DNA of 64,000 nt from an uncultured Actinomycetota bacterium (GTDB taxonomy: Bacteria > Actinomycetota > Actinomycetes > JAFAQI01), in the NCBI GenBank assembly GCA_963789615.1, contig CAWBLI010000001.1, positions 308,685-372,684 on the forward strand, in the 5' to 3' direction. Positions 3,414 through 45,344 of this stretch are shown here, in pieces; the first letter of the stretch is position 1, and every line of letters begins with the position of its first letter. Both the position numbers and the translations under genes were made by a program. The notes beneath the pieces were generated by a model, which had not been told where the DNA came from, searched no databases, and saw only the letters and a list, made by a program, of their open reading frames with translations.

Positions 3414-4772
3414 CTACATGCTCGCGATCAGCTTCTCGACCCGGTCGTCGACCGAGCGGAACGGGTCCTTGCACAGTACGGTGCGCTGAGCCTGGTCGTT
3501 GAGCTTGAGGTGCACCCAGTCCACCGTGAAGTCACGTCGCTTCTCCTGGGCGTGCCGGATGAAGTCGCCCCGCAGCCTCGCCCGGGTGGTCTGCGGTGGC
3601 ACCGACTTGGCCTCAAAGATCTTCAGATCGGTGGTGACGCGCTCGGCGGCGCCGCGGCGTTCCAGCAGGTAGTACAGGCCGCGGCGGCGGTTGACGTCGT
3701 GGTACGCCAGATCGATCTGCGCGACCCGTGGCGAAGACAGCGGCATGTCGTGCTTGGCGCGGTAACGCTCGATCAGCTGGTACTTCGCGACCCAGTCGAT
3801 CTCGCGCTCCACCAGTCCGAGGTCGCCGGTGTCGACCGCCTTCAAGGTCCGCTCCCACAGCTCGAGCACCTTGTCGGTGGTCGGGTCGGAGCCGCGTCGC
3901 TGCACGAAGTCACGGGCCTTGATGAAGTACTCCTGCTGGATCTCCAGCGCGCTCGCCTCGCGACCGTTGGCGAGCTTCACCTTGCGCCGACCGGTCACGT
4001 CGTGACTGACCTCACGGATCGCCCGGATCGCGTTCTCCAGGCTCAGGTCCCGCATCACGATGCCGGCCTCGATCATGCGCAGCACCAGGTCCGTGGTACC
4101 GATCTTGAGCATCGTCGTCGTCTCGGACATGTTGCTGTCGCCGACGATGACGTGTAGCCGGCGGAACCGTTCGGCGTCGGCGTGCGGCTCGTCGCGGGTG
4201 TTGATGATCGGGCGGCTACGTGTCGTGGCGCTGCTCACGCCCTCCCAGATGTGCTCGGCCCGCTGGCTCACGCAGTAGACGGCGCCGCGGGGCGTCAGCA
4301 GCACCTTCCCGGCCCCGCAGATGATCTGCCGCGTGACGAGGAACGGGATGAGTACGTCGGCCAGCCGGCTGAACTCGCCATGCCGGCCGACCAGGTAGTT
4401 CTCGTGGCAGCCGTAGGAGTTGCCGGCCGAGTCGGTGTTGTTCTTGAACAGGTAGATGTCGCCGGCGATGCCCTCCTCGCGGAGCCGTCGCTCGGCGTCC
4501 ATCAGCAGACCCTCGAGGGTGCGCTCGCCGGCCTTGTCGTGGGCGACGAGCTCGATGACGTCGTCGCACTCGGGCGTCGCGTATTCGGGGTGTGAGCCGA
4601 CGTCGAGGTAGAGCCGGGCGCCGTTCTTCAGGAAGACGTTGCTGCTGCGCCCCCACGAGACGACCCGGCGGAACAGGTACCTGGCAACCTCGTCCGGTGA
4701 GAGCCGGCGCTGGCCGCGAAACGTGCACGTGACGCCGTACTCGTTCTCCAGGCCGAAGATACGGCGGTCCAT
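3414..4772 (-). CDS. pafA: Pup--protein ligase PafA
   Basis: [18 protein letters not shown]...[21 protein letters not shown]...[28 protein letters not shown]...[35 protein letters not shown] is near-collinear with mycobacterial PafA as I remember it, including the LIASM end. Start moved to the internal ATG 4772, giving 452 aa. Confidence 0.95.
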
Positions 4773-13042: not shown

Positions 13043-14602
13043 CTACGTGGTGGCCGGGTCCGAGCTGACGGCCCCGGCCGCCGCTGGCGGGTGCTGCTCG
13101 AGGCCGGTGGTGGCGGGCTCGATGAGGTCCAGTCCGGCGTGGTACACCGCCACCGTCGCCTTGCCGGCGCGTTTGGCGGCGTAGAGCGCAAGATCGGCGC
13201 GCTTGAGCATCTCGGTGGCACTCACGGACGGGTCCTCGGCACGCATCACGGCGATCCCGATGCTGGCCCGGACCGGGATGTCGCAGGAACCGAGCCGGAC
13301 CGGGGCATCTAATGCGGCGAGCAGGCGGGCGCCAAGCGCGACCGCGTCGCCGGCGTCCTCCATCAGGACGGTGAACTCATCACCACCGAGTCGCGCCACG
13401 GTGTCGCCGCGACGGGCGGTGGCTAGCAGCCGCTCACTGACCCGGACCAGCAGCTCATCGCCGGCGGGGTGACCGAGCGTGTCGTTGACGTGCTTGAACT
13501 CGTCGAGATCGATCAGCAGTAGTGCCAGTGGCCGCATGTCCCGACGGTGCAGATCCAGGGCATGGATGAGCCGGTCGTTGAACAATGCCCGGTTCGCCAG
13601 ACCGGTGAGCACGTCGTGGAACGCCTGATGGGTGATCCGGGCGACCAGGAGCCGGTTATCCAGCAGGACCAGGATCTGACGGGTCACCAGCATCGCGATC
13701 ACGATCGCGGCTCCGACGACGATCGCGTCATCCGCCGGCTGGGAGCCGCGAAGCCGCCACAGCGAGACGACGAGTGCGAGGGTCGCGGGCAGGTACGGCA
13801 GCAGCAGCGCGGTACGAGGCGGCGCGTCGAGACCCGACCCTTGCTGTTCGGACGACGCCGTGTCGAACCAGGCGGCCAGCGCCAGCACCAGAAACCCGGC
13901 GACCCAGCCGACGTCGATCAGGTTGCCGGTGGCATAGCGACCTGACGCGGTGAGGTACGCGAACCCGCTATCCGCCACCGAGAGCCCGATCAGCCCCGAC
14001 GCCACCCAGAGCAGCCCGGCCCGCGATCCGGTCCGGGCGTAGGCGACGACGATCACGGCCACGGTCAGCACGATCACGTCGCTGGCCGGGTAGGCGAGGC
14101 TGACCACGGTGGCCAGCGTCGAGTCGCCACCGGCCCGGTAGACCGCACCCAGCGCGGTCGCCCAGCTCAACACGAACAGGGACGCGGCGACCAGCACCCC
14201 GTCTAGACCGATCCGCAGCCGGCCCTTACCGTCGAACGCGCGGCTCGGCCGGATCAGGATGCCGATCAAGGCGAGCGGCGGTAACAACAGGTAGCCCACG
14301 TCGGCGGCTGACGGAAACGGCGTCGCTCGATTCGCGATCACCTCGTAGTACGTCCACACGCCCTGCCCCGCCCCCCAGCAAGCCAACCCGGACGCGATCA
14401 AGACCCACGAGGTCCGCAGTCGCCACCGGGCGCGACGCGCCCGCAGCGCCGCCGCTAGCGATGCGCCACCCGCCGCAAGCAACTGCGCCAGATCATCGGC
14501 ATCACGCGTCAGGTGAACGCCGCCAGGCTGCATCCGAAGATCCACGACGAAACCGGCCAGGACGACCGCAACGACAGCCAGCAGCACCCGAGGTCGCCTC
14601 AC
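13043..14602 (-). CDS. Membrane-anchored diguanylate cyclase (GGDEF domain)
   Basis: About 300 aa of multiple TM helices, then LTGLANRALF...LLLIDLDEFKHVNDTLGHPAGDELL...RLGGDEFTVL...SIGIA...ADLALYAAK. Confidence 0.9.
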   Translation of the reverse strand: MRRPRVLLAVVAVVLAGFVVDLRMQPGGVHLTRDADDLAQLLAAGGASLAAALRARRARWRLRTSWVLIASGLACWGAGQGVWTYYEVIANRATPFPSAADVGYLLLPPLALIGILIRPSRAFDGKGRLRIGLDGVLVAASLFVLSWATALGAVYRAGGDSTLATVVSLAYPASDVIVLTVAVIVVAYARTGSRAGLLWVASGLIGLSVADSGFAYLTASGRYATGNLIDVGWVAGFLVLALAAWFDTASSEQQGSGLDAPPRTALLLPYLPATLALVVSLWRLRGSQPADDAIVVGAAIVIAMLVTRQILVLLDNRLLVARITHQAFHDVLTGLANRALFNDRLIHALDLHRRDMRPLALLLIDLDEFKHVNDTLGHPAGDELLVRVSERLLATARRGDTVARLGGDEFTVLMEDAGDAVALGARLLAALDAPVRLGSCDIPVRASIGIAVMRAEDPSVSATEMLKRADLALYAAKRAGKATVAVYHAGLDLIEPATTGLEQHPPAAAGAVSSDPATT

Positions 14603-15287
14603 GGCCCCTTACATCGGCGCTAGCACCCCAAACATTGACACACAAGGACAACCGTCCCAAAGGCCACCGAGGTCCGCGGGTTCCCCACGATCCCCCACCG
14701 ACGACAGCCGGATGCCGGCCGGCTACGCCGGGCATCACTGTGACGCCGGCCGCAGGGCCGCCTCGCCGCTCCACCGAACAGCCGCTCAGGCTCGCGAACC
14801 GACGGCGCGAGGCGCAGGCACGGCTCCGGCAACGGACATGCGAGCCATCGTGGCCGACCTTCGCTCCCCGCTGCCGCTTGCCTCACCAACCGCAGGGTGA
14901 CGTTGACGCCCACACCGTCGAGCCGTCATCACAGCGAACCAAGATGAGGATTGCCGCGGGGCAACCTGTCAACCGGCTGTGGACGGCGCCGCGCAACAGC
15001 CAGGGGCCCGAACGGCAGAGGACGGGCGTGTACTAGGTCTAGGCATAGGCCCGTCGCGCGGAAGCCGGCGAGTCCAGTAAGTGCAGGCCTCTGACCTGCG
15101 TGTTTACGAGGTGGCGGGAGTTCTCCAGGCCGGTCGTCGTTGGCCAGCCTAGGCGCTGCCCGCATGGCCGACCTGCTCGAGCCTGCTCGGCGCGCTGAGC
15201 TGGCAGGGCTGCGCTGGGCACCGTCACCATCGCGGCAATGTCCTGAATCGCCGATATCGGGCAGGAGTTCGGCTCTCTGCGCCGAAG

Positions 15288-15303
15288 TGTGACAGAGATC
15301 ACA
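15288..15303. promoter_or_regulatory. Perfect CRP/FNR-family consensus palindrome TGTGA-N6-TCACA
   Basis: The sequence tgtgacagagatcaca reads directly at 15288..15303, 18 nt upstream of ATG 15321 and just before the GGAGG RBS. Confidence 0.35.
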
Positions 15304-15320
15304 TGGGCTGAGGAGGCGCG

Positions 15321-16084
15321 ATGGGATTCCGGGCCGGCCGAGGGGCGCTGGGGGTGACGGTGACAGCGGGGATCGTCGTTGCGGGCGGGCTCGCCGCCGG
15401 GGCTCCGGCCGCGGCCGCGACCGGTCGCGTGCACCCGGGACGACCGTGACCGTGTCGTCCAACAGCTGCGAGGTCGGCTTCCTGCTGCGGCAGCGGAAGA
15501 AGGTCTATGCCGCTGATCCCTGCCTCGTGTCTGGGCACGGACGGTGGCAGCGGCGGCAACGGGTGCGCGGAGTCGCAGGCGCCACGCGGTCACCGGCGAC
15601 GATCGCCGGTGCCCGGCGGCGGCCCATGTGGTGTACAGCTCGTTCACGCGGATGCAGCGCAGTGGTACGGCGTCGGCCGACGCCTGCGCCGGGAACAACC
15701 TGGCGCTGTTCCGACTCGCTCGGTAGACGCCCGACGGGCTCGCGGCGAGATCCCGGGCTCGATGTCGGTCACCGGCGTCGCGCGGTCGGCACCCCGCTCA
15801 GGGACGACGCTGGGGGTCTACCTCGGCGTCGGCGAGCTCGGGACGTGCAGGGTCGACCGGACAGCGCGTGGCTGGCGGCAGGAGGTGACGGTTGAAGGAC
15901 ATGGTCGCCGCATCGAACCTCGGAGCGCCGGCGGTGACGTCCAGCGGCCGGGCCGTCGGCATGATCGCGCAGATCCCCGCCGATGGCCGGGGTGGGTGCT
16001 TCCGAGGTGACGAGCCTGGCGAAGGAGCTCCGGTACCTCCGTCGGGTGCACGCCTTTCGTCGCCTGCGCCTGATGACCCGCTGA
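15321..16084 (+). pseudogene. Secreted trypsin-fold (S1-like) protein remnant, multiple frame changes (tentative)
   Basis: GGAGG RBS plus the signal-like MGFRAGRGALGVTVTAGIVVAGGLAAGAPAAAA. Later pieces are scattered over three frames: SCEVGFLLRQ.KKVY, NNLALFRLA, GAPAVTSSGRAVGMIAQIP, EVTSLAKELRYLRRVHAFRRLRLMTR*. No clean His or GDSG motif was found. Confidence 0.3.
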
Positions 16085-16111
16085 GCGGGGTAGCGGGTTA
16101 GGCGCGACGGG

Positions 16112-16851
16112 TCAGGAGGACAGTAGCGGGGTCAGCTGCGCGTCGGTCAGCCGGCGGAACAGCCGGCGCTGCGGGTCCGGTCGAGGACTGCTACCTCGAG
16201 CTGCGCGGCGCCGATCTCCCGGGGCTCGCCCTCGGACGTCGCGAGGCCGCGAACCGCGAGCTGCACCCCTTCGGCCAGCGACATGCCTTCGTTGTGACCC
16301 TCGCGCACCGTGGCGCCGATGGTCTCGGCGGACCCGCCCATGACGACGACGTCCTTCTCGTCCCCCACGCTGCCGTCGTACGTCAGCCGGTAGAGCTGGT
16401 CGTCCGCGGCGGTCTCTCCGACCTCGGCAACCGTGATCTCGACCTCGAACGGCTTCTCGCCGCCACTGGAGAAGATGGTGCCGAGGATCTGGGCGTAGGT
16501 GTTGGCCAGCGCCCGGCCGGTGACGTCGCTTCGGTCGTAGGAGTAGCCGCGGAGGTCGGCCATCCGCACTCCCGCGACCCGCAGGTTCTCGAACTCGTTG
16601 TACTTCCCGACCGCCGCGAAGGCGATCCGGTCGTAGATCTCGGAGATCTTGTGCAGCGCGGAGCTGGGATTCTCCGCGACGAACAAGATGCCGTCGGCGT
16701 AGGTCATGACGAGGACGGCGCGACCGCGTGCAATGCCCTTCCGGGCGTAGTCGGCGCGGTCCTTCATCACCTGCTCGGGTGAGACGTAACCGAACGGCAT
16801 CGTCACTGTGAAGCTCGCTCCCTCGGTGATGGTGATGGGTACGCCGCTCAT
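16112..16851 (-). pseudogene. prcA: Proteasome alpha subunit PrcA; single frame break about 50 nt before the stop
   Basis: [72 protein letters not shown]...[10 protein letters not shown]. The ORF then reads SAGCSAG*. One base away, the conserved tail [18 protein letters not shown] is in frame (stop at 16112). The start overlaps the prcB stop (ATGA). An alternative start is ATG 16803. Confidence 0.9.
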
Positions 16852-17708
16852 CGCATCGACGCGATCGGTCCGCCGGGGCTGCTCATCCGCTCCTGCACGA
16901 CGGCCTCGGTGAGCTGGGCGACGTCGTCGTCGTCGAGCCGGCGGAAGCCGTCGGCGGTCACGCTGGTGATGACGGGATAGATCCGGCGGGTCAGGTCCGG
17001 GCCACCGGTCGCGCTGTCGTCGTCGGCCGCGTCGTACAGCGCGTGGATGACGGCCAGCACGGCGTCGTCCTCGGTGAAGTCGTCGCGGTAGAGCTTTTTC
17101 AGGGCGCCGCGGGCGAAGACGCTGCCGGAGCCGACCGAGTGGAAGCTGTGCTCCTCGTAGCGACCGCCGGTGACGTCGTAGGAGAAGATCCGGCCGGCCT
17201 TCGCGGGGTCGTCCACCGTGAGGTCGTATCCGGCGAACAGCGGCACGACGGCGAGACCCTGCATCGCCATCGGCAGGTTGTTGCGGATCAGCAGGCTGAG
17301 CCGGTTGGCCTTGCCATCGAGGCTGAGCGTGGTGCCCTCGATCTTCTCGTAGTGCTCGAGCTCGACCTGGAACAGCCGCACCATCTCGACCGCGATCCCG
17401 GCCGTGCCGGCGATGGCGACAGCGGAGTACTCGTCGGCCTGGAAGACCTTCTCGATGTCGCGCTGCGCGATCAGGTTGCCCATCGTGGCCCGACGGTCAC
17501 CGGCCATGACGACCCCGGTGCTGTGGACGATCGCAACGACGGTCGTCCCGTGCGGTGCCTCGATGCCTGCCATGGTGCCTCCCAGCATGGCCTCGGCGCG
17601 CTTGCCGGGAAGCAGGTCGGGGGCCTGCCGGGCCAGGAAGTCGCTGAACGAGCTGGTGCCCGGCGAGAAGAACGCCGGGGGAAGAGTCGTGCCGTCGGAG
17701 AGGTCCAC
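16848..17708 (-). CDS. prcB: Proteasome beta subunit PrcB (with propeptide)
   Basis: Propeptide, then the [23 protein letters not shown] Thr1 processing site. GTG start. Intact 286 aa. Confidence 0.95.
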
Positions 17709-17762: not shown

Positions 17763-18480
17763 TTACCGGCTGTGGTGCTTCGAGAGCACCTCGATGATGC
17801 AGCCTTCGACTCTCGACTCGGTCACTGTCGCACCCAGAGCGGCGAGTCGATGGCGGATGAGGTACGCCGAGAGGCCTTCGAGCACCCGCAGGCTGTCACG
17901 GACGTTTCCAAGCGCCTGGTTGCAGTTGAAACAGAGCATGCCGCGTACCATGCCCGTGGCGTGGTCGTGGTCGACGTGTCCAGGATCGGGCTTGCCGCAC
18001 CCGTCGCACTTGTCGTTCTGCTCGGACAGCATCCGGTCGACGTCTGCCTGGCCGATTCCGTATGACGCCGCAGGTGATACTCGCGCGTACTTCCGTACAG
18101 CCGAATATAGTTCTCCTTGCCTTTTGCATTGTGACAAGGCTTGCAATAGGCCGTCAGACCGTCGCTGGTGGATCGGTTGTTGGCGAACCGTTCTAGTGGC
18201 AGGGTCTGTTTGCAACGAGGGCAAAACTTGTGACCAGGTGTTGAGTTCTTGCGTCTGCGAATCACACGACCTTGCGCGGCTGCCTTGCGGTCACGGTGCT
18301 GTCGATGACGAATCGCGAAACACGGCCGGCAATAGCTGGCTCTTCATCTAACCGTTTGACCGCCGGCGGAAAATCACTAAGCGGCTTAATCAATCCGCAG
18401 TCACGACAGACCCTTCGAGCTAAGTGGCGGCTGCGTCCGACGAATCGAACATAGGGTCTATTCCCCGCCTTTCTGGACAT
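17763..18480 (-). pseudogene. Endonuclease VII-family (T4 endoVII/HNH-like) protein with two N-terminal CxxC..CxxC zinc-ribbon modules; two single-base frame breaks
   Basis: Reconstructed from three frames. Piece 1: MSRKAGNRPYVRFVGRSRHLARRVCRDCGLIKPLSDFPPAVKRLD(G)RASYCRPCFAIRHRQHRDRKAAAQGRVIRRRKNSTPGHKFCPRCKQTLPLERFANNRSTSDGLTAYCKPCHNAKGKENYIRLYGSTREYHLRR. Piece 2: YGIGQADVDRMLSEQNDKCDGCGKPDPGHVDHDHATGMVRGMLCFNCNQALGNVRDSLRVLEGLSAYL. Breaks fall near 18345 and 18062. ATG 18480 lies inside the last codons of pup. Confidence 0.75.
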
Positions 18481-18667
18481 ATCCTCTAACAAAGTCCTCG
18501 GCATTCGACTCGAGCACCGAGTCGATTTCGTCGAGAATGTCATCGACGTCATCGTCGAGTTTCTCGTGCCTTTCTTGTACGTCAGAAGTATCGATTTCCT
18601 CGATTTCCTCGACATCTTCGGTGCGTCGGGTCGAACGCTGCTGGCCGCCGTCATCGCGAGTCGCCAT
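18458..18667 (-). CDS. pup: Prokaryotic ubiquitin-like protein Pup (C-terminal GGE form)
   Basis: MATRDDGGQQRSTRRTEDVEEIEEIDTSDVQERHEKLDDDVDDILDEIDSVLESNAEDFVRGYVQKGGE. AGGAGG RBS 6 nt upstream. Sits between dop and prcB. Confidence 0.95.
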   Translation of the reverse strand: MATRDDGGQQRSTRRTEDVEEIEEIDTSDVQERHEKLDDDVDDILDEIDSVLESNAEDFVRGYVQKGGE

Positions 18668-18745: not shown

Positions 18746-20278
18746 TTAGCCGCCGCTGGTGATCTCGTCGACGAGCTGGGCCGCGGTGGCGCAGCGCTCC
18801 AGCAACGCGTCGACGTGGGCCTTGGTCCCGCGCAGCGGCTCCATCATCGGGATGCGCTGCAGCGACTCGCGACCGACGTCGAAGATCACCGAGTCCCAGG
18901 ACGCGGCGGCGACGTCGTCGGCGTACCGGGACAGGCAGCGACCGCGGAAGTAGGCGCGGGTGTCCGTCGGCGGCTCGGTGATGGCGCGCTGGATCTCGTC
19001 CTCGTCCAGCAGCCGGGTCATCTGGCCCCGCGCCACGAGCCGGTTGTAGAGGCCCTTCTCGGGTCGCAGGTCGCTGTACTGCAGGTCGACGAGGTGCAGC
19101 TTCGCCGCGCTCCAGTCGAGGCCCTCGCGGTCCCGGTAGCCCTCCAGCAGCCTGAGCTTCGCGACCCAGTCGAGCTCCGAGGCCATCGACATCGGGTCGT
19201 CGGCGAGACCGACCAGGGTCCGCTCCCAGCGGTCCAACACGTCGATGGTCTGCTCGTCCGCGTCGGCACCGTAGCGGTCCTCGACGAACTTGCGGGCCTG
19301 CTCGAGGAACTCCGACTGAAGCTGCAGTGCGGTGAGCGTGCGGCCGTCACGGGTCCGCACCAGGTGATGCAGGGACGGGTCGTGGGAGACGGCCCGCAGC
19401 GACGCGACCGGACTTTCGATCGAGAGGTCCACCGCGTTGTCGGCGAACCACGCCTCCTCGATCATCGACAGCACCAGCGAGGTGGTCCCGACCTTGAGGT
19501 ACGTCGAGATCTCGCTGAGGTTCGCGTCGCCGAGGATGACGTGGAGCCGGCGGTAGCGCTCCGGGTCGGCGTGCGGCTCGTCGCGGGTGTTGATGATCGG
19601 ACGCTTCAGCGTGGTCTCGAGCCCGACCTCCACCTCGAAGAAGTCGGCCCGCTGGGAGAGCTGGAACCCCTCGCCGCGACCGTCCTGGCCGATCCCGACG
19701 CGCCCGGCCCCGCAGACCACCTGGCGGGAGACGAAGAACGGCGTGAGGTGGTGGACGATGTCGGCGAACGCGGTCTTCCGCCGCATCAGGTAGTTCTCGT
19801 GGGCGCCGTACGACACGCCCTTGTTGTCGGTGTTGTTCTTGTAGAGCGACGATCCGCCGGCACCCGGGATGTGCGCCGCATGCTCGGCGGCGAGGACCAT
19901 GACCCGCTCCCCCGCCTTGTCCCACAGCACGGCGTCGCGCGGGTTGGTGACCTCGGGGCTGGAGTACTCCGGGTGGGCGTGGTCGACGTAGAGCCGCGCG
20001 CCGTTGGTCAGGATGACGTTGGCGAGACCGACTTCGTCGTCGGTGAGGAAGTCGGCGTCACGCGCTGCAGCCGGCCCGGCGTCGAACCCGCGCGCGTCGC
20101 GCTGCGGCGACTCCTCTTCGAAGTCCCACCGCGGCCGCCGGTCGCGAGGTGCTCCGGTGGTCAGCGACAGGTAGGCGTTGACGATCTGGCTGGACGCCAG
20201 CATGTGGTTGATCGACGTGCGCCCGGGAACCGAGATACCGAACTCCGTCTCGGTGCCCATCACGCGGCGGACCGTCAT
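18746..20278 (-). CDS. dop: Pup deamidase/depupylase Dop
   Basis: [10 protein letters not shown]...[17 protein letters not shown]...[21 protein letters not shown]...[20 protein letters not shown]...[28 protein letters not shown]...ASWDSVIFD is collinear with mycobacterial Dop as remembered. It is distinguished from PafA by the Dop-specific loop and its position next to pup. Confidence 0.95.
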
Positions 20279-20331: not shown

Positions 20332-24238
<3,907 letters not shown>

Positions 24239-42211: not shown

Positions 42212-42299
42212 GTCGGAGTGGCGGAATGGCAGACGCGCTAGCTTGAGGTGCTAGTGCCCTTTATAGGGCGTGGGGGTTCAAGTCCCCCCTCCGACACCA
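42212..42299 (+). tRNA. tRNA-Leu (anticodon GAG), type II with long variable arm, CCA encoded
   Basis: Hand-folded cloverleaf. Acceptor GTCGGAG/CTCCGAC. D-arm GCG-GAATGGCAGA-CGC. Anticodon stem CTAGC/GCTAG with loop TTGAGGT. Variable arm GCCC-TTTATA-GGGC. T-arm GGGGG-TTCAAGT-CCCCC. Discriminator A plus CCA. Confidence 0.95.
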
Positions 42300-42382
42300 A
42301 TCCCAGGCCTCTGACCTGCAGGTTTGCCTCGAAAATCGGCGTGATCAGCCCGCCGGGGGGTTTACGGGGGGTCTATCACTAG

Positions 42383-43960
42383 TTGAGGGTTGCCATGGCG
42401 CGCGGGTCCGACGTCGCCGTGCCGATATCACTTGGCCCGCCACGCCTGCAGTCGGCAGCCGGTGGTCGGAGGGAGCCGCAGTACGACTGTCAGATCCCCC
42501 CGGCGAGCCCGCCTGACATCGAACGAGGACACCGAGACGTGACCGAGAGCGCCGTTCTCGAGGGAACCCCCTACTCCTTGCCATTCGAAGCCGACGCCGA
42601 GTTGCAGAAGCTGGCAACAGATACCGAGGAGATCCGGACTGTTGTCGCATCGGCGAGCAAGCGCGCAGCCAGCCAAGGACTCCTCGACAACTTCCGACAA
42701 AATCAGCGATACCGAGAGGTCTACGAAAGCAACGCCTTGGAGCTTGAAGGGCCAGACCTTGCAGGCACCGTGGCTGCGCTTCGTTCGGCGCTGGCGACAG
42801 ACATGGATCGGACGCTCTCAGAAAACCTGCTTCCACGCCTTCTTGCAGACGACCCGGACATGCACGCTGTCATCGGGCTCGAAGCAGCCCGGCAGCACGC
42901 CGCGCGCTTACTTAGCTCTAGCGGCGCGAGGCCGCTTACCGAAACCGACATCCGGACGCTTCACGAACTCATTACGCGCGGTCATGACTTCGCCGGCCAG
43001 TACAAGCGCTACCACGTGTTGTTAGGAGGACACACAAAACACGAGCCGGTCCTGCCCATCGAAGTGTCTCTGCACATGGGAAGGCTGACGACTTGGAACG
43101 GCCGTTGCGTAGACGAGAATCCGATTCTTCGAGCCGCGGCGCTCCACGCCTGGATGACGCACATACATCCATTCGAGGATGGGAACGGCCGCGTCGCCCG
43201 GCTCTTGGCAAATCTGACACTCGCTCAGGCCGGACTTCCTCCCGCCATCGTAAAGGCACGAACACAGCGGACTGACTACCTGGACGCTCTTGCTGTTAGC
43301 GATGAGGGCGGCGACATCATGCCGTTAACGGGTCTGTTCACCAAGACCCTGCTGCGTTATGCCCAAGAGATGGAGAAGCCTAGGTTCTTCCGGAAACTCT
43401 TCCACGACCTCATCGAGAGCCGAGGCAGCACCATCCACGAATGGTTTACTCGTCAGCTCGAGAGCTTTCTGCGGCAGTTGGCGGGCGAACTCGCGGCATT
43501 CAAGATTGAGTCTTACGTCGGCGACGCGGTCGACCGTGAGACGTTTGAGGCCTACCGCACCGGCCAGCGCCGTGAAACAACGATGGTCCGGCTAGTGCAA
43601 TCCCCAGAGGGCGCTCAGATCGCCGTTCTGGTCGGCGCGCCTAGTCGAGGAGTTACACGGTTCACTGAGGTTAGTGACATGTGGCCATCGATTCAGTTCG
43701 CGATAAGAAGCGACCGCTACAAGCTCAACCCGTACGACGTTCCGGGGGCTCGCCAACTGTCGAGAATGCGTGAAGTCTATTTCGATCCCGATGGTCCCAA
43801 GGCCTTCGCCTGGGTTGAAGATCGACTACTCCACGGCGATGTTGCGAAGATCGCCGAAATCGCTGCGGACCGAATCCGCGTTGCCCTCGCCACGAAAACG
43901 GTAAGCGATGTCGATCGGATCTTTTATAGACCCCCGACAGTCGATGGCGGTCCGGGATAG
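42383..43960 (+). CDS. Fic-family protein (AMPylase-type motif) with ~200-aa uncharacterised C-terminal extension
   Basis: Canonical Fic motif HPFEDGNGRVARLL at 43166..43207. N-terminal YESNALELEG resembles the class-II inhibitory helix. The start is uncertain (42383 GTG, 42395 ATG or 42539 GTG). Confidence 0.9.
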   Translation: MRVAMARGSDVAVPISLGPPRLQSAAGGRREPQYDCQIPPASPPDIERGHRDVTESAVLEGTPYSLPFEADAELQKLATDTEEIRTVVASASKRAASQGLLDNFRQNQRYREVYESNALELEGPDLAGTVAALRSALATDMDRTLSENLLPRLLADDPDMHAVIGLEAARQHAARLLSSSGARPLTETDIRTLHELITRGHDFAGQYKRYHVLLGGHTKHEPVLPIEVSLHMGRLTTWNGRCVDENPILRAAALHAWMTHIHPFEDGNGRVARLLANLTLAQAGLPPAIVKARTQRTDYLDALAVSDEGGDIMPLTGLFTKTLLRYAQEMEKPRFFRKLFHDLIESRGSTIHEWFTRQLESFLRQLAGELAAFKIESYVGDAVDRETFEAYRTGQRRETTMVRLVQSPEGAQIAVLVGAPSRGVTRFTEVSDMWPSIQFAIRSDRYKLNPYDVPGARQLSRMREVYFDPDGPKAFAWVEDRLLHGDVAKIAEIAADRIRVALATKTVSDVDRIFYRPPTVDGGPG

Positions 43961-44059
43961 GTGCTGTGTCAGCGTCTCGAGTAGGGCCGTATGGCACACA
44001 CAGAATGGAACATTCGACCCTCTTCGGCATGGATCTGCGCTCGGGTCGGCTGCCGGTCA

Positions 44060-45323
44060 TCAACGTGTGCTGGTCTTGCCGCCAACGACGAGTTCCGTCA
44101 TCAGGGCGGCGGCCCTGGCAGATCGTTCCTTGAGGACGTGGGAGTAGACGGTTCGGGTGACGACGACGTTCGTGTGTCCGAGGAGCTGCGCGACGATCTG
44201 GTCGTCGACGCCGGCGAAGATCATGGCGGTTGCGGTGGTGTGCCGGGTGTCGTGCAGCCGGAGCATCGGCAGCGGCTTCTCGGGGTGCTCCTTGTTGTAG
44301 CGGGTGATCATCCGCTTGAACGTCCTCGACAGGTGGTCGGGGTGTAGCGGCGTACCGGACAGGCCGTCGGGCTGGTTGCGGCCGTCACTGACAAACACGT
44401 AGTCCGACTCGAACCACCGGCCCGGCGGCACGGGCCACCTCGCGGTCAGCATGCAGTCGGTCGCGGTGCCGTTTCATGATCTCGATGAGGACGCCGTCGA
44501 GGGGCAGGAACCGGCCGCGGCCTTGTCCCTTGGTGGTGTCGCGTTCGATGACATGGCCGTTCATGGTGGTGGTGCGGTTTCGGGTGAGGGCGAGCGTCCC
44601 GTGTTCGAGGTCGACGCCGTCCCAGCGCAGCCCGAGTAGCTCGCCTCGTCGGGGGCCGCGGGTGAAGTAGAGCCAGAACAGCGCGACGAGGGGGTGGTCC
44701 TCGTAGTGGGTGAGGAACGCCAGGATCTGCTCGGGCTGCCAGATGTCGTAGCGGCCTTGGTCGGAGAGCGCCGGCGTCCGGGGCATGTCGTCTTTGCCGA
44801 TCTGGGTGCACGGGTTGGTGCGTCGCAGTGGTGGGTCTTGGGTGATGGCGTCTCGGAAGCAGGCGCGGAGGATGTTGTGGATGTAGGCGACGCTTCGTTG
44901 CGACAGCGGGCCGCGGCCGCCGGGGCTGCCCTGGGCCATGAGCCGGTCGTAGAGCCGGGTCAGGTTCTTCGGGCCGACGTCACGGACCCGGATCGGCCCG
45001 AGCTCGGGGCGGATGTGGAGTCGGATGTCCTTGCGGTAGGACTCGTGGGTGGTCTCGCTGAACCGGCCGAGCCGGACCCGTCGGGCGAGGATCTCGTCCC
45101 ATTGGTCGAGCCACTGGTTCATGGTCACTGGGCTGGCGATGTCGGGGGCGCCGTCATGGGTGGCGTCCCGGTCGGTCTCGGCGCGGATCCAGCGGGTGGC
45201 CGCTGCCTTGCTGGGGAGGCCCTTCTTCCGGCGCCGCTGGCCGAGGACGGTGACCTCGGCGGTGTAGGTGTGCGTGGCGGGGTTGAGGTAGACGGTGCCC
45301 TCTCCCCTGCTGCGTCGCCCCAC
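44060..45323 (-). pseudogene. Tyrosine recombinase / phage-type integrase; one frame break
   Basis: N-terminal and core-binding part are in ORF 44385..45323 (GTG start, ...RRGELLGLRWDGVDL with catalytic Arg). The catalytic C-terminus is in ORF 44060..44452 (LRLHDTRHTTAT..LLGHTNVVVTRTVYSHV = HxxR, H, Y). The break is near 44430. Confidence 0.9.
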
Positions 45324-45344
45324 GTGTCCTGTCCTTCCGTGCCG

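Follow-up and report, generated by a model that had tools for sequence, protein, structure and literature searches.

The free-standing HNH and GIY-YIG genes of T-even phages (seg and mob) undergo intronless homing, in which flanking markers are co-converted with the gene. In actinobacterial chromosomes, Endonuclease_7 genes that follow the Pup gene or precede the gene for the proteasome beta subunit were noted by Jablonska et al. 2017 (NAR 45:11479, PMC5714182; group 13), who suggested a role in the Pup-proteasome system in one sentence and a supplementary figure, with no experiments. No nuclease is mentioned in a 2021 review of the Pup-proteasome locus (PMC8223512) or in Iyer et al. 2008. The pup/endonuclease VII/prcB neighborhood is thus already published but uncharacterized. 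Here we analyzed a member of the group 13 set, of the same family and neighborhood, which lies between pup and prcB in a stretch of 64,000 nucleotides from an uncultured Actinomycetota bacterium (contig CAWBLI010000001.1, positions 308,685 to 372,684); this whole stretch is referred to as the window. We regard it as an evenly balanced proposition that the feature is a free-standing gene of the homing-endonuclease-like kind that resides at the pup-prcB junction, and that the window carries a broken copy of this locus-specific subfamily. The proposal is based on the exclusive use of one site, a patchy distribution with graded decay, a foreign-looking composition that extends into pup, the repeated replacement of a putative DNA-recognition module at fixed breakpoints, the presence of relatives in phages and the lack of transposon hallmarks.

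Like the T-even seg and mob genes, the pup-prcB gene encodes an intergenic nuclease among conserved operon genes, occurs patchily, has decayed copies, shows a mosaic or co-converted flank and has phage relatives. Unlike them, it resides in a chromosomal housekeeping operon across a phylum, is mostly inherited vertically and exchanges mainly its N-terminal module, and its putative mobility is read from comparisons of sequences. At the protein level, the product resembles the restriction enzyme Hpy99I in its Cys4 zinc sites, in a zinc-ribbon stretch before the nuclease domain and in a helix after it. It differs from Hpy99I in the low identity (~22%), the whole-chain TM-score (~0.25-0.30), the lack of a partner methyltransferase and the genomic context, and it has two tandem ribbons where Hpy99I has an N-terminal beta-barrel. 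T4 endonuclease VII (gp49; 1en7, 1e7d, 2qnc) has the same CxxC...HxDHDH...CxxCN core and also belongs to PF02945, and the predicted structure of an intact homologue (P0001) superposes on 1en7 with a root-mean-square deviation of 2.7 Å over 86 columns. In contrast to the pup-prcB protein, this Holliday-junction resolvase lacks the two N-terminal ribbons, has another dimerization domain, serves the phage in packaging and repair, and recognizes DNA by its structure and not by its sequence.

The ribbon-plus-nuclease architecture is shared with actinophage 'endonuclease VII'/HNH proteins (phrog_2633), among them proteins of Streptomyces BE-cluster phages (e.g. Spilled, TomSawyer) that are 34% identical over residues 9-195. 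These looser relatives in actinophage genomes differ in that they are phage-borne, show at most 38% identity, occur at varied positions and in most cases possess only one ribbon. From them the chromosomal subfamily is set apart as a distinct and site-bound clade. The report of Jablonska et al. (PMC5714182) did not cover exclusive occupancy, the patchy distribution and its relics, the exchange of the N-terminal cassette or the island of deviating composition. New here are the site exclusivity, the relics, the exchangeable cassette, the tract of low GC content at third codon positions (GC3) in pup, a corrected start and break count, and a caveat concerning frameshifts in neighboring genes.

Results

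Occupancy of the pup-prcB junction

The genomic context of relatives was collected from four looked-up proteins, the 80 best genome loci, ten metagenome loci and four further loci (L167-L170), which together gave 96 distinct contexts. All 96 relatives with readable context (41-79% identical, tblastn) were located directly after pup on the same strand. The original prediction had named the same gene at unrelated loci as an outcome that would count against it, and none was found. Occupancy of a single site, as is expected of a homing endonuclease gene, was therefore observed in every one of these contexts. The four looked-up proteins (P0001 and those of a Frankiaceae metagenome-assembled genome (MAG), Phytohabitans rumicis and a 'Mycobacteriales' MAG) were all encoded between pup and prcB. 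A scan with one genome per species returned at least 399 relatives. The best 80 loci, which span Micromonospora, Actinoplanes and allies, Nonomuraea, Actinoallomurus, Frankiaceae, Jatrophihabitans and two Acidimicrobiia MAGs, all had the gene after pup on the same strand with prcB next, except that in Nonomuraea a further insert separates it from prcB.

The Nonomuraea insert, which breaks the operon before prcB, contains an oppositely oriented gene for a Y-family DNA polymerase (IMS/DinB); L037 has an additional ~2.5 kb of unassigned sequence besides the polymerase insert. In L054 (4594..4675), as in other Micromonosporaceae loci, the nuclease gene ends ~80 nucleotides (nt) inside the 5' part of prcB, in a different frame, and in the clade of the window a gap of ~54 nt is found instead of this overlap.

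Patchy presence and decay

The presence of the gene was assessed in a PrcB-anchored sample of 80 metagenome loci, 74 of which were informative. In 60 of the 74, pup directly adjoined prcB, which agrees with the arrangement that the original prediction gave for the well-studied loci of Mycobacterium and Rhodococcus, with prcB immediately after pup. The nuclease gene was present in ten, and the remaining four had another pup-prcB spacing. A core component of the Pup-proteasome would be present wherever the system is present, whereas 60 of the 74 loci were without the gene. On a PrcB tree, presence was clade-structured yet scattered over many separate branches. The model organisms M. tuberculosis and Rhodococcus are likewise not known to carry the gene at their pup-prcB junctions. 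For the uncharacterized ORF that the original prediction mentioned at this position in some Streptomyces loci, literature searches returned nothing relevant.

Searches with a hidden Markov model (HMM) of the family detected remnants of the nuclease motif (e.g. GHVDHDHVSGTVRV) in the short gaps of the otherwise empty loci L096, L141, L130 and L161, as well as short copies riddled with stops in L116, L122, L139 and L145. Three Micromonospora copies (L075, L083 and L084) were truncated at the N-terminus, with ribbon 1 lost or corrupted. In the window's own clade, the copy in L167 had its ATG changed to ATA and a frameshift in ribbon 2. Patchiness together with degenerate copies, as left by a homing endonuclease gene in its cycle of invasion, decay and loss, was thus observed. 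A conserved C-terminal 'tail' was also considered as a relic and rejected, as it proved to be 5' coding sequence of prcB in a different frame. Because of the overlap with prcB, this tail looks conserved even in dead copies; L153 was dropped for this reason, and only remnants of the nuclease motif were counted.

Layout of the locus in the window

The minus-strand order in the window is dop (20278..18746), pup, a 749-nt interval, prcB and prcA. The original prediction had placed a nuclease-type gene between the pup stop (18458) and the prcB start (17708), and this layout was confirmed. The interval reads in three frames and, as had been described, encodes a protein of ~239 amino acids on the same strand once two single-base breaks are repaired; the two zinc ribbons and the C-terminal CxxC...HVDHDH...CxxCN motif were found where they had been placed. 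The features are as follows.

18458..18667, minus strand: pup, 69 amino acids with the C-terminus ...YVQKGGE (Pfam Pup PF05639, E=1.7e-27)
18461..18496, minus strand: last 12 pup codons, with low GC3 as in the nuclease gene; may be a co-conversion tract
18478..18480, minus strand: ATG taken as the start in the original prediction, within the pup codons TAT-GTC
18450..18452, minus strand: conserved (ancestral) nuclease ATG, 5 nt past the pup stop, reading MFDSSDAAAT and then TAG after 10 codons
18133..18460, minus strand: variable cassette, comprising the intergenic spacer and nuclease codons ~1-105 (ribbon 1, a basic linker and the first half of ribbon 2)
18320..18408, minus strand: zinc ribbon 1, CRDC...DG RASYCRPC, with a 1-nt deletion between 18345 and 18344
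18134..18223, minus strand: zinc ribbon 2, CPRC...DGLTAYCKPC
17859..18080, minus strand: Endonuclease VII / His-Me finger domain (Pfam PF02945), with HVDHDH at 17978..17961 and the CN motif
17763..17858, minus strand: C-terminal helix and beta-hairpin tail of the nuclease, with the stop TAA at 17765..17763
16848..17708, minus strand: prcB, proteasome beta subunit, intact, GTG start at 17708 (Pfam Proteasome, E=2.2e-37; 99% amino acid identity to L001)
16147..16851, minus strand: prcA, proteasome alpha subunit, intact

The nuclease stop is separated from prcB by 54 nt. No meaningful terminal inverted or direct repeats or target-site duplication flanked the nuclease gene, and a Pfam scan found no transposase domain at it. 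An origin from a transposon or insertion sequence was ruled out on these grounds. The gene lies inside the operon, and neither an internal promoter nor a terminator was found in it.

An exchangeable N-terminal cassette

Nucleotide identity profiles of Micromonospora pairs were mostly at 90-100% over dop, pup, prcB and prcA and fell to 38-68% in a sharply bounded block. In seven of seven pairs, this block began at the pup stop (-6..+2) and ended at ~+325 nt, shortly ahead of the YCKPC in ribbon 2, with constant breakpoints. Identity was ~0.45 inside the ~330-nt block and 0.85-0.94 outside it. The same was seen at the protein level: among loci whose flanking proteins shared at least 98% identity, the nuclease was 38-95% identical in its N-terminal half and 91-100% in its C-terminal half. 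The cassette occurs in two forms, class A (RRCRDCGEWKPL...) and class B (CPQCxRLLP...). The classes were independent of the flank phylogeny, and each spans several Micromonosporaceae genera. In four between-class pairs, the synonymous divergence (dS) was 1.2-1.5 in the cassette vs 0.03-0.19 in prcB. By these comparisons the cassettes form two old allele lineages that cross genera.

Within a cassette class, the ratio of nonsynonymous to synonymous divergence (dN/dS) of intact copies was ~0.13-0.21, vs ~0.08 for prcB. The intact copies are thus under purifying selection, and both cassette forms are, by the same values, functional coding sequence. The window copy is itself a mosaic relative to L001, with ~57% nt identity in the cassette and 86-95% in the rest of the gene and prcBA. 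Its cassette was at most 63% identical to anything among the matches listed in a search of 5.8 billion proteins.

Composition of the junction and the end of pup

The interval forms a low-GC stretch (52-57% vs 69% for the window) that also takes in the 3' end of pup. Over 82 loci, mean GC3 was ~0.77 in the nuclease gene vs 0.94-0.95 in dop and prcB; in the window, GC3 was 0.50-0.59 in the cassette and 0.42 in the last 12 pup codons. In a comparison uncorrected for phylogenetic non-independence, mean GC3 of the last 12 pup codons was 0.60 in 91 gene-bearing loci vs 0.90 in 57 gene-less loci, and that of the preceding 30 pup codons was 0.84 vs 0.91. A constraint from the Shine-Dalgarno and start region was rejected as the cause of the low GC3 at the pup 3' end: gene-less loci start prcB there, yet their GC3 is 0.90.

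The final residue of Pup, Gln or Glu, decides whether deamidation by Dop is needed before ligation. This residue switched with the cassette: Pup ends in GGQ in L024 (class A) and in GGE in the near-identical L080 and L061 (class B; around 3930..3950). The ratio of C-terminal Glu to Gln was 52:39 where the gene is present and 18:39 where it is absent. The exchanged tract can thus switch the C-terminal residue (L024 vs L080), which would change the dependence on Dop.

Protein family, catalytic residues and fold

An HMM search of the repaired window protein against Pfam matched Endonuclease_7 (PF02945) with 70.4 bits, far over the cut-off of 23.6 (E=1.2e-19, residues 136-208, profile positions 3-80 of 82), and so bore out the Endonuclease VII / His-Me finger identity proposed in the original prediction. 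Database searches returned 258 relatives of the repaired protein (best E=9e-111), mostly of 215-235 amino acids with the same architecture and PF02945, and the wider family comprised 1,564 clusters at E<=1e-30. NCBIfam holds no model for the nuclease family. The PHROG family phrog_2633 ('endonuclease VII') matched homologues over ribbon 2 and the nuclease domain (E=9e-42). PADLOC gave only weak REase_II matches, down to 4.7e-11 (P0110) and marginal for most members.

The repaired protein contains C159, C162, C184 and C187, which make up the Cys4 zinc site of the nuclease domain, together with D171, H172, H174 and N188. These residues align with C23, C26, D40, H41, H43, C58, C61 and N62 of T4 endonuclease VII. 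They are invariant or nearly so in the family, except at the positions neighboring H174, and N188 is invariant in alignment A1 only. The Cys and Gly positions of ribbon 1 were invariant in homologue alignments A1 and A3. With its catalytic and zinc residues intact, the product is a putative nuclease.

A profile of 47 homologues matched Hpy99I (3fc3; E=2.3e-11) over the zinc-ribbon stretch and the nuclease domain with its C-terminal helix, and T4 endonuclease VII (1e7d/1en7) with E=4.5e-9. The fold was compared with an AlphaFold2 (AF2) model of P0001 rather than of the broken window copy. The model had a predicted local distance difference test (pLDDT) score of 90.6, with a helix at 185-202 and strands at 205-222, and the corresponding C-terminal tail of the window protein is 100% identical to that of P0001. 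Foldseek ranked Hpy99I first (probability 1.0, E=1.3e-4), followed by the Stc1 tandem zinc finger and T4 endonuclease VII. By sequence and predicted fold, the feature is thus an Endonuclease VII / His-Me finger gene with two N-terminal zinc ribbons, whose build resembles that of the sequence-specific restriction enzyme Hpy99I.

Several variants of the architecture were observed. Many close family representatives (P0121-P0269) have 300-570 amino acids with two to eight matched stretches, which represent repeated ribbon or nuclease modules. In Nonomuraea (L034 3998..6090; L037 3974..6032), a nuclease of ~335 amino acids has two Endonuclease_7 stretches, i.e. a duplicated domain. 'Short forms' of 142-147 amino acids were rejected as true variants at least for L168 (2106..2795) and L169 (2126..2815), where the public calls give 147 amino acids and the actual open reading frame (ORF) is intact with ~229. 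Since these are mis-called starts, the short forms of the family in databases are partly artifacts. The low-GC3 N-terminal cassette seems to mislead gene callers.

Start codon and frame breaks of the window copy

The start codon was examined by aligning the DNA with that of L001, the closest intact relative (its protein P0001 is 77% identical), and of Micromonospora loci. In the homologues compared as DNA, the family start lies past the pup stop, 7 nt past it in L001. The window ATG at 18452..18450 aligned with the starts of the intact homologues L001 (MSDSLSDG), L054 (MSDSSDRSEK) and L168 (MSDSSDGPL). The original prediction had taken the ATG at 18480, which overlaps the end of pup, as the start and had proposed translational coupling. 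The codon exists, whereas its use as the native start, and with it the coupling, was rejected: the ~20 residues it adds are not conserved, the L001 gene uses another frame there, and homologues begin past the pup stop. The ATG inside pup is probably fortuitous, as far as the alignment indicates. A Pup-nuclease fusion formed by stop-codon readthrough was also rejected, since the nuclease is directly in the pup frame in about a quarter of the loci, which is about the chance level.

The 239-residue protein is obtained by repairing one base at 18345/18344 (RLD|GRASYC) and one at 18064/18063 (HLRR|YGIGQ), at the start of the nuclease domain, where 1 nt is deleted. Because the ATG at 18452 runs into a stop after 10 codons, the alignment gives three frame disruptions from the conserved start, not two. 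The repaired protein retained 32 of 32 residues that were invariant across the 47 homologues, and its C-terminal half was 91% identical to the intact P0001. If the window copy is a pseudogene, these two observations make it a young one. The copy is therefore either a very young pseudogene in its decay phase or the product of sequencing errors.

That the gene is intact in the organism, with the frame breaks arising from sequencing or assembly errors, is a serious possibility that we rate a little short of even. Besides the retained invariant residues and the conserved C-terminal half, it is favored by the state of the neighboring genes: within the same 5.3 kb, the conserved genes mpa and trmI have two single-base frame breaks each, and all three frames of each are still homologue-like. 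The mpa/arc gene (~22016..20335, minus strand) is split over three frames with fragments of 77-92% amino acid identity to homologues, and trmI (23049..~22184, minus strand) likewise with fragments of 69-79%; single-base insertions lie near 21554, 20802, 22575 and 22229 in these two genes (20335..23049). As the fragments keep high identity, these breaks resemble error rather than decay, and reflect either a local sequencing error or a very recent inactivation of the proteasomal ATPase. On the other hand, the breaks are not window-wide. The dop gene, which lies between mpa/trmI and the nuclease gene, is intact, as are prcB, prcA, pafA, the genes for an M50 peptidase and a 766-residue prolyl oligopeptidase, a luciferase-like gene and others. 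No long homopolymers occur at the frame breaks, and in L167, a related metagenome contig, the same nuclease gene has independently become a pseudogene, decay being common elsewhere. Frame integrity in the rest of the window was judged from Pfam scans of suspicious ORF pairs; a scan of GC3 phase confused gene boundaries with frameshifts. By the Pfam scans most window genes were intact, and one more split gene was found, an integrase at 44063..45344.

Discussion

Of the two readings offered by the original prediction, a homing-endonuclease-like selfish gene and a component of the Pup-proteasome system, the former is favored by the patchy occurrence with its decayed relics, by the low-GC3 island, into which the 3' end of pup falls, and by the exchange of the cassette between species. 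In the homing-like reading, the enzyme would recognize and cut the highly conserved pup 3' end or the pup-prcB junction in a gene-less copy or a rival allele, with the zinc ribbons giving sequence recognition and the His-Me finger making the cut. Recombinational repair from a gene-bearing template would then copy the gene in, along with a short flank that includes the last pup codons. Once fixed, the gene would decay and be lost, after which it would be reacquired, or its N-terminal recognition module would be replaced. Tentatively, and with less than even confidence, we extend this to a chromosomal homing endonuclease that has colonized the pup 3' end and pup-prcB junction, which ranks among the most conserved short sequences of Actinomycetota, and persists across orders by invasion, decay and reinvasion, in which at least two ancient alleles of the recognition module (tandem zinc ribbons) are kept as a polymorphism across genera by mutual displacement ('allelic homing') and carry with them the last pup codons, including the C-terminal Gln or Glu.

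Several points weigh against a homing-like gene. The divergence of the nuclease gene tracks that of PrcB/PrcA overall (Pearson 0.87), so that inheritance is mostly vertical, with the C-terminal nuclease domain closely following the flanks. Horizontal exchange was clear in the N-terminal cassette and in the 3' tract of pup; transfer of the whole gene is not among the signals, and the exchanged unit is the N-terminal module rather than the entire gene. Ordinary homologous recombination combined with balancing selection could yield such module exchange without homing. The GC3 contrast between gene-bearing and gene-less loci is subject to the shared ancestry of the loci, and if the gene is expressed poorly, weak selection could account for part of the low GC3. 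The gene is also intact in nearly all of the ~70 isolate genomes of Micromonosporaceae and Nonomuraea. More decay is expected of a purely selfish fixed gene, and a host benefit or domestication is plausible. Homing as proposed here is deduced from patterns in sequences, as are the activity, the target site and the mobility of the enzyme.

The gene could instead be a genuine, optional accessory host gene of the Pup-proteasome operon that acts in DNA-damage processing or another proteasome-linked pathway and was lost in many lineages. It shares the strand of the operon that surrounds it, is separated from its neighbors by short spacers or overlaps them, and has no internal promoter or terminator; the mostly vertical inheritance, the dN/dS of ~0.15-0.2 and the intactness in isolate genomes all suit a host gene. 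A Y-family (DinB/IMS) polymerase gene adjoins it in Nonomuraea, the Pup-proteasome locus is tied to the DNA-damage response via PafBC (PMC8223512), and the neighborhood note of Jablonska et al. (PMC5714182) suggests such a role. That review, however, names no nuclease at the locus (PMC8223512), and the gene is missing from ~80% of the sampled Pup-proteasome loci. Repeated relics and pseudogenes and a persistent low-GC3 island reaching into pup also speak against a host function, and an exchange of N-terminal modules between species at near-saturated synonymous divergence is unexpected for a housekeeping factor. We consider this reading unlikely: most loci lack the gene and several hold dead remnants, which weakens the proposal of a Pup-proteasome component while leaving it some room.

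A solitary restriction-like or defense nuclease related to Hpy99I, parked in a stable operon, would account for other features. Its ribbon module would set the DNA specificity and be kept polymorphic by diversifying or balancing selection, e.g. as imposed by phages or incoming DNA. Both sequence and fold match Hpy99I best, weak PADLOC REase_II matches were obtained (to 4.7e-11 for P0110), relatives are common in actinophages, and two deep allele lineages across species and genera with purifying selection within each are typical of balanced specificity modules. Of what marks a Type II restriction-modification system, similarity to a characterized restriction enzyme was found, whereas an adjacent methyltransferase was not: in no locus did a cognate methyltransferase or other defense gene adjoin, the neighbors always being pup and prcB. 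Moreover, a defense nuclease has no obvious reason to keep one site across orders and even classes (Acidimicrobiia), the PADLOC scores were marginal for most members, and the low-GC3 tract into pup is left unexplained. We therefore judge a defense nuclease improbable.

In ~1/7 of the sampled loci, a nuclease gene lies inside the pup-prcBA operon, a heavily studied virulence and stress locus whose reviews do not mention it. If the gene is selfish, intronless homing would have reached a housekeeping operon of bacteria, an unusual case and a tractable one, with two natural allele classes in culturable Micromonospora and Actinoplanes and an obvious predicted target. If it is a host factor, pupylation and DNA processing would be physically connected in a new way. 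In either case, annotation of the pup-prcB site should identify its numerous short relics and truncated gene calls as such.

Other observations in the window

Downstream of prcA, the ~1.5 kb between it and a GGDEF gene (14600..16147) contained no ORF with a normal codon-position GC pattern. At the matching region, L001, L002 and L006 have a gene of ~250 amino acids on the opposite strand with no Pfam matches, and the window and L001 diverge sharply from this region onward. Elsewhere in the window, a low-GC stretch (0.62 at 42-44 kb) and the tyrosine-integrase gene split in two frames (44063..44473 and 44388..45344) come after a tRNA-Leu(GAG) gene (42212..42299); the region 42212..45344 looks like the remnant of a tRNA-integrated element.

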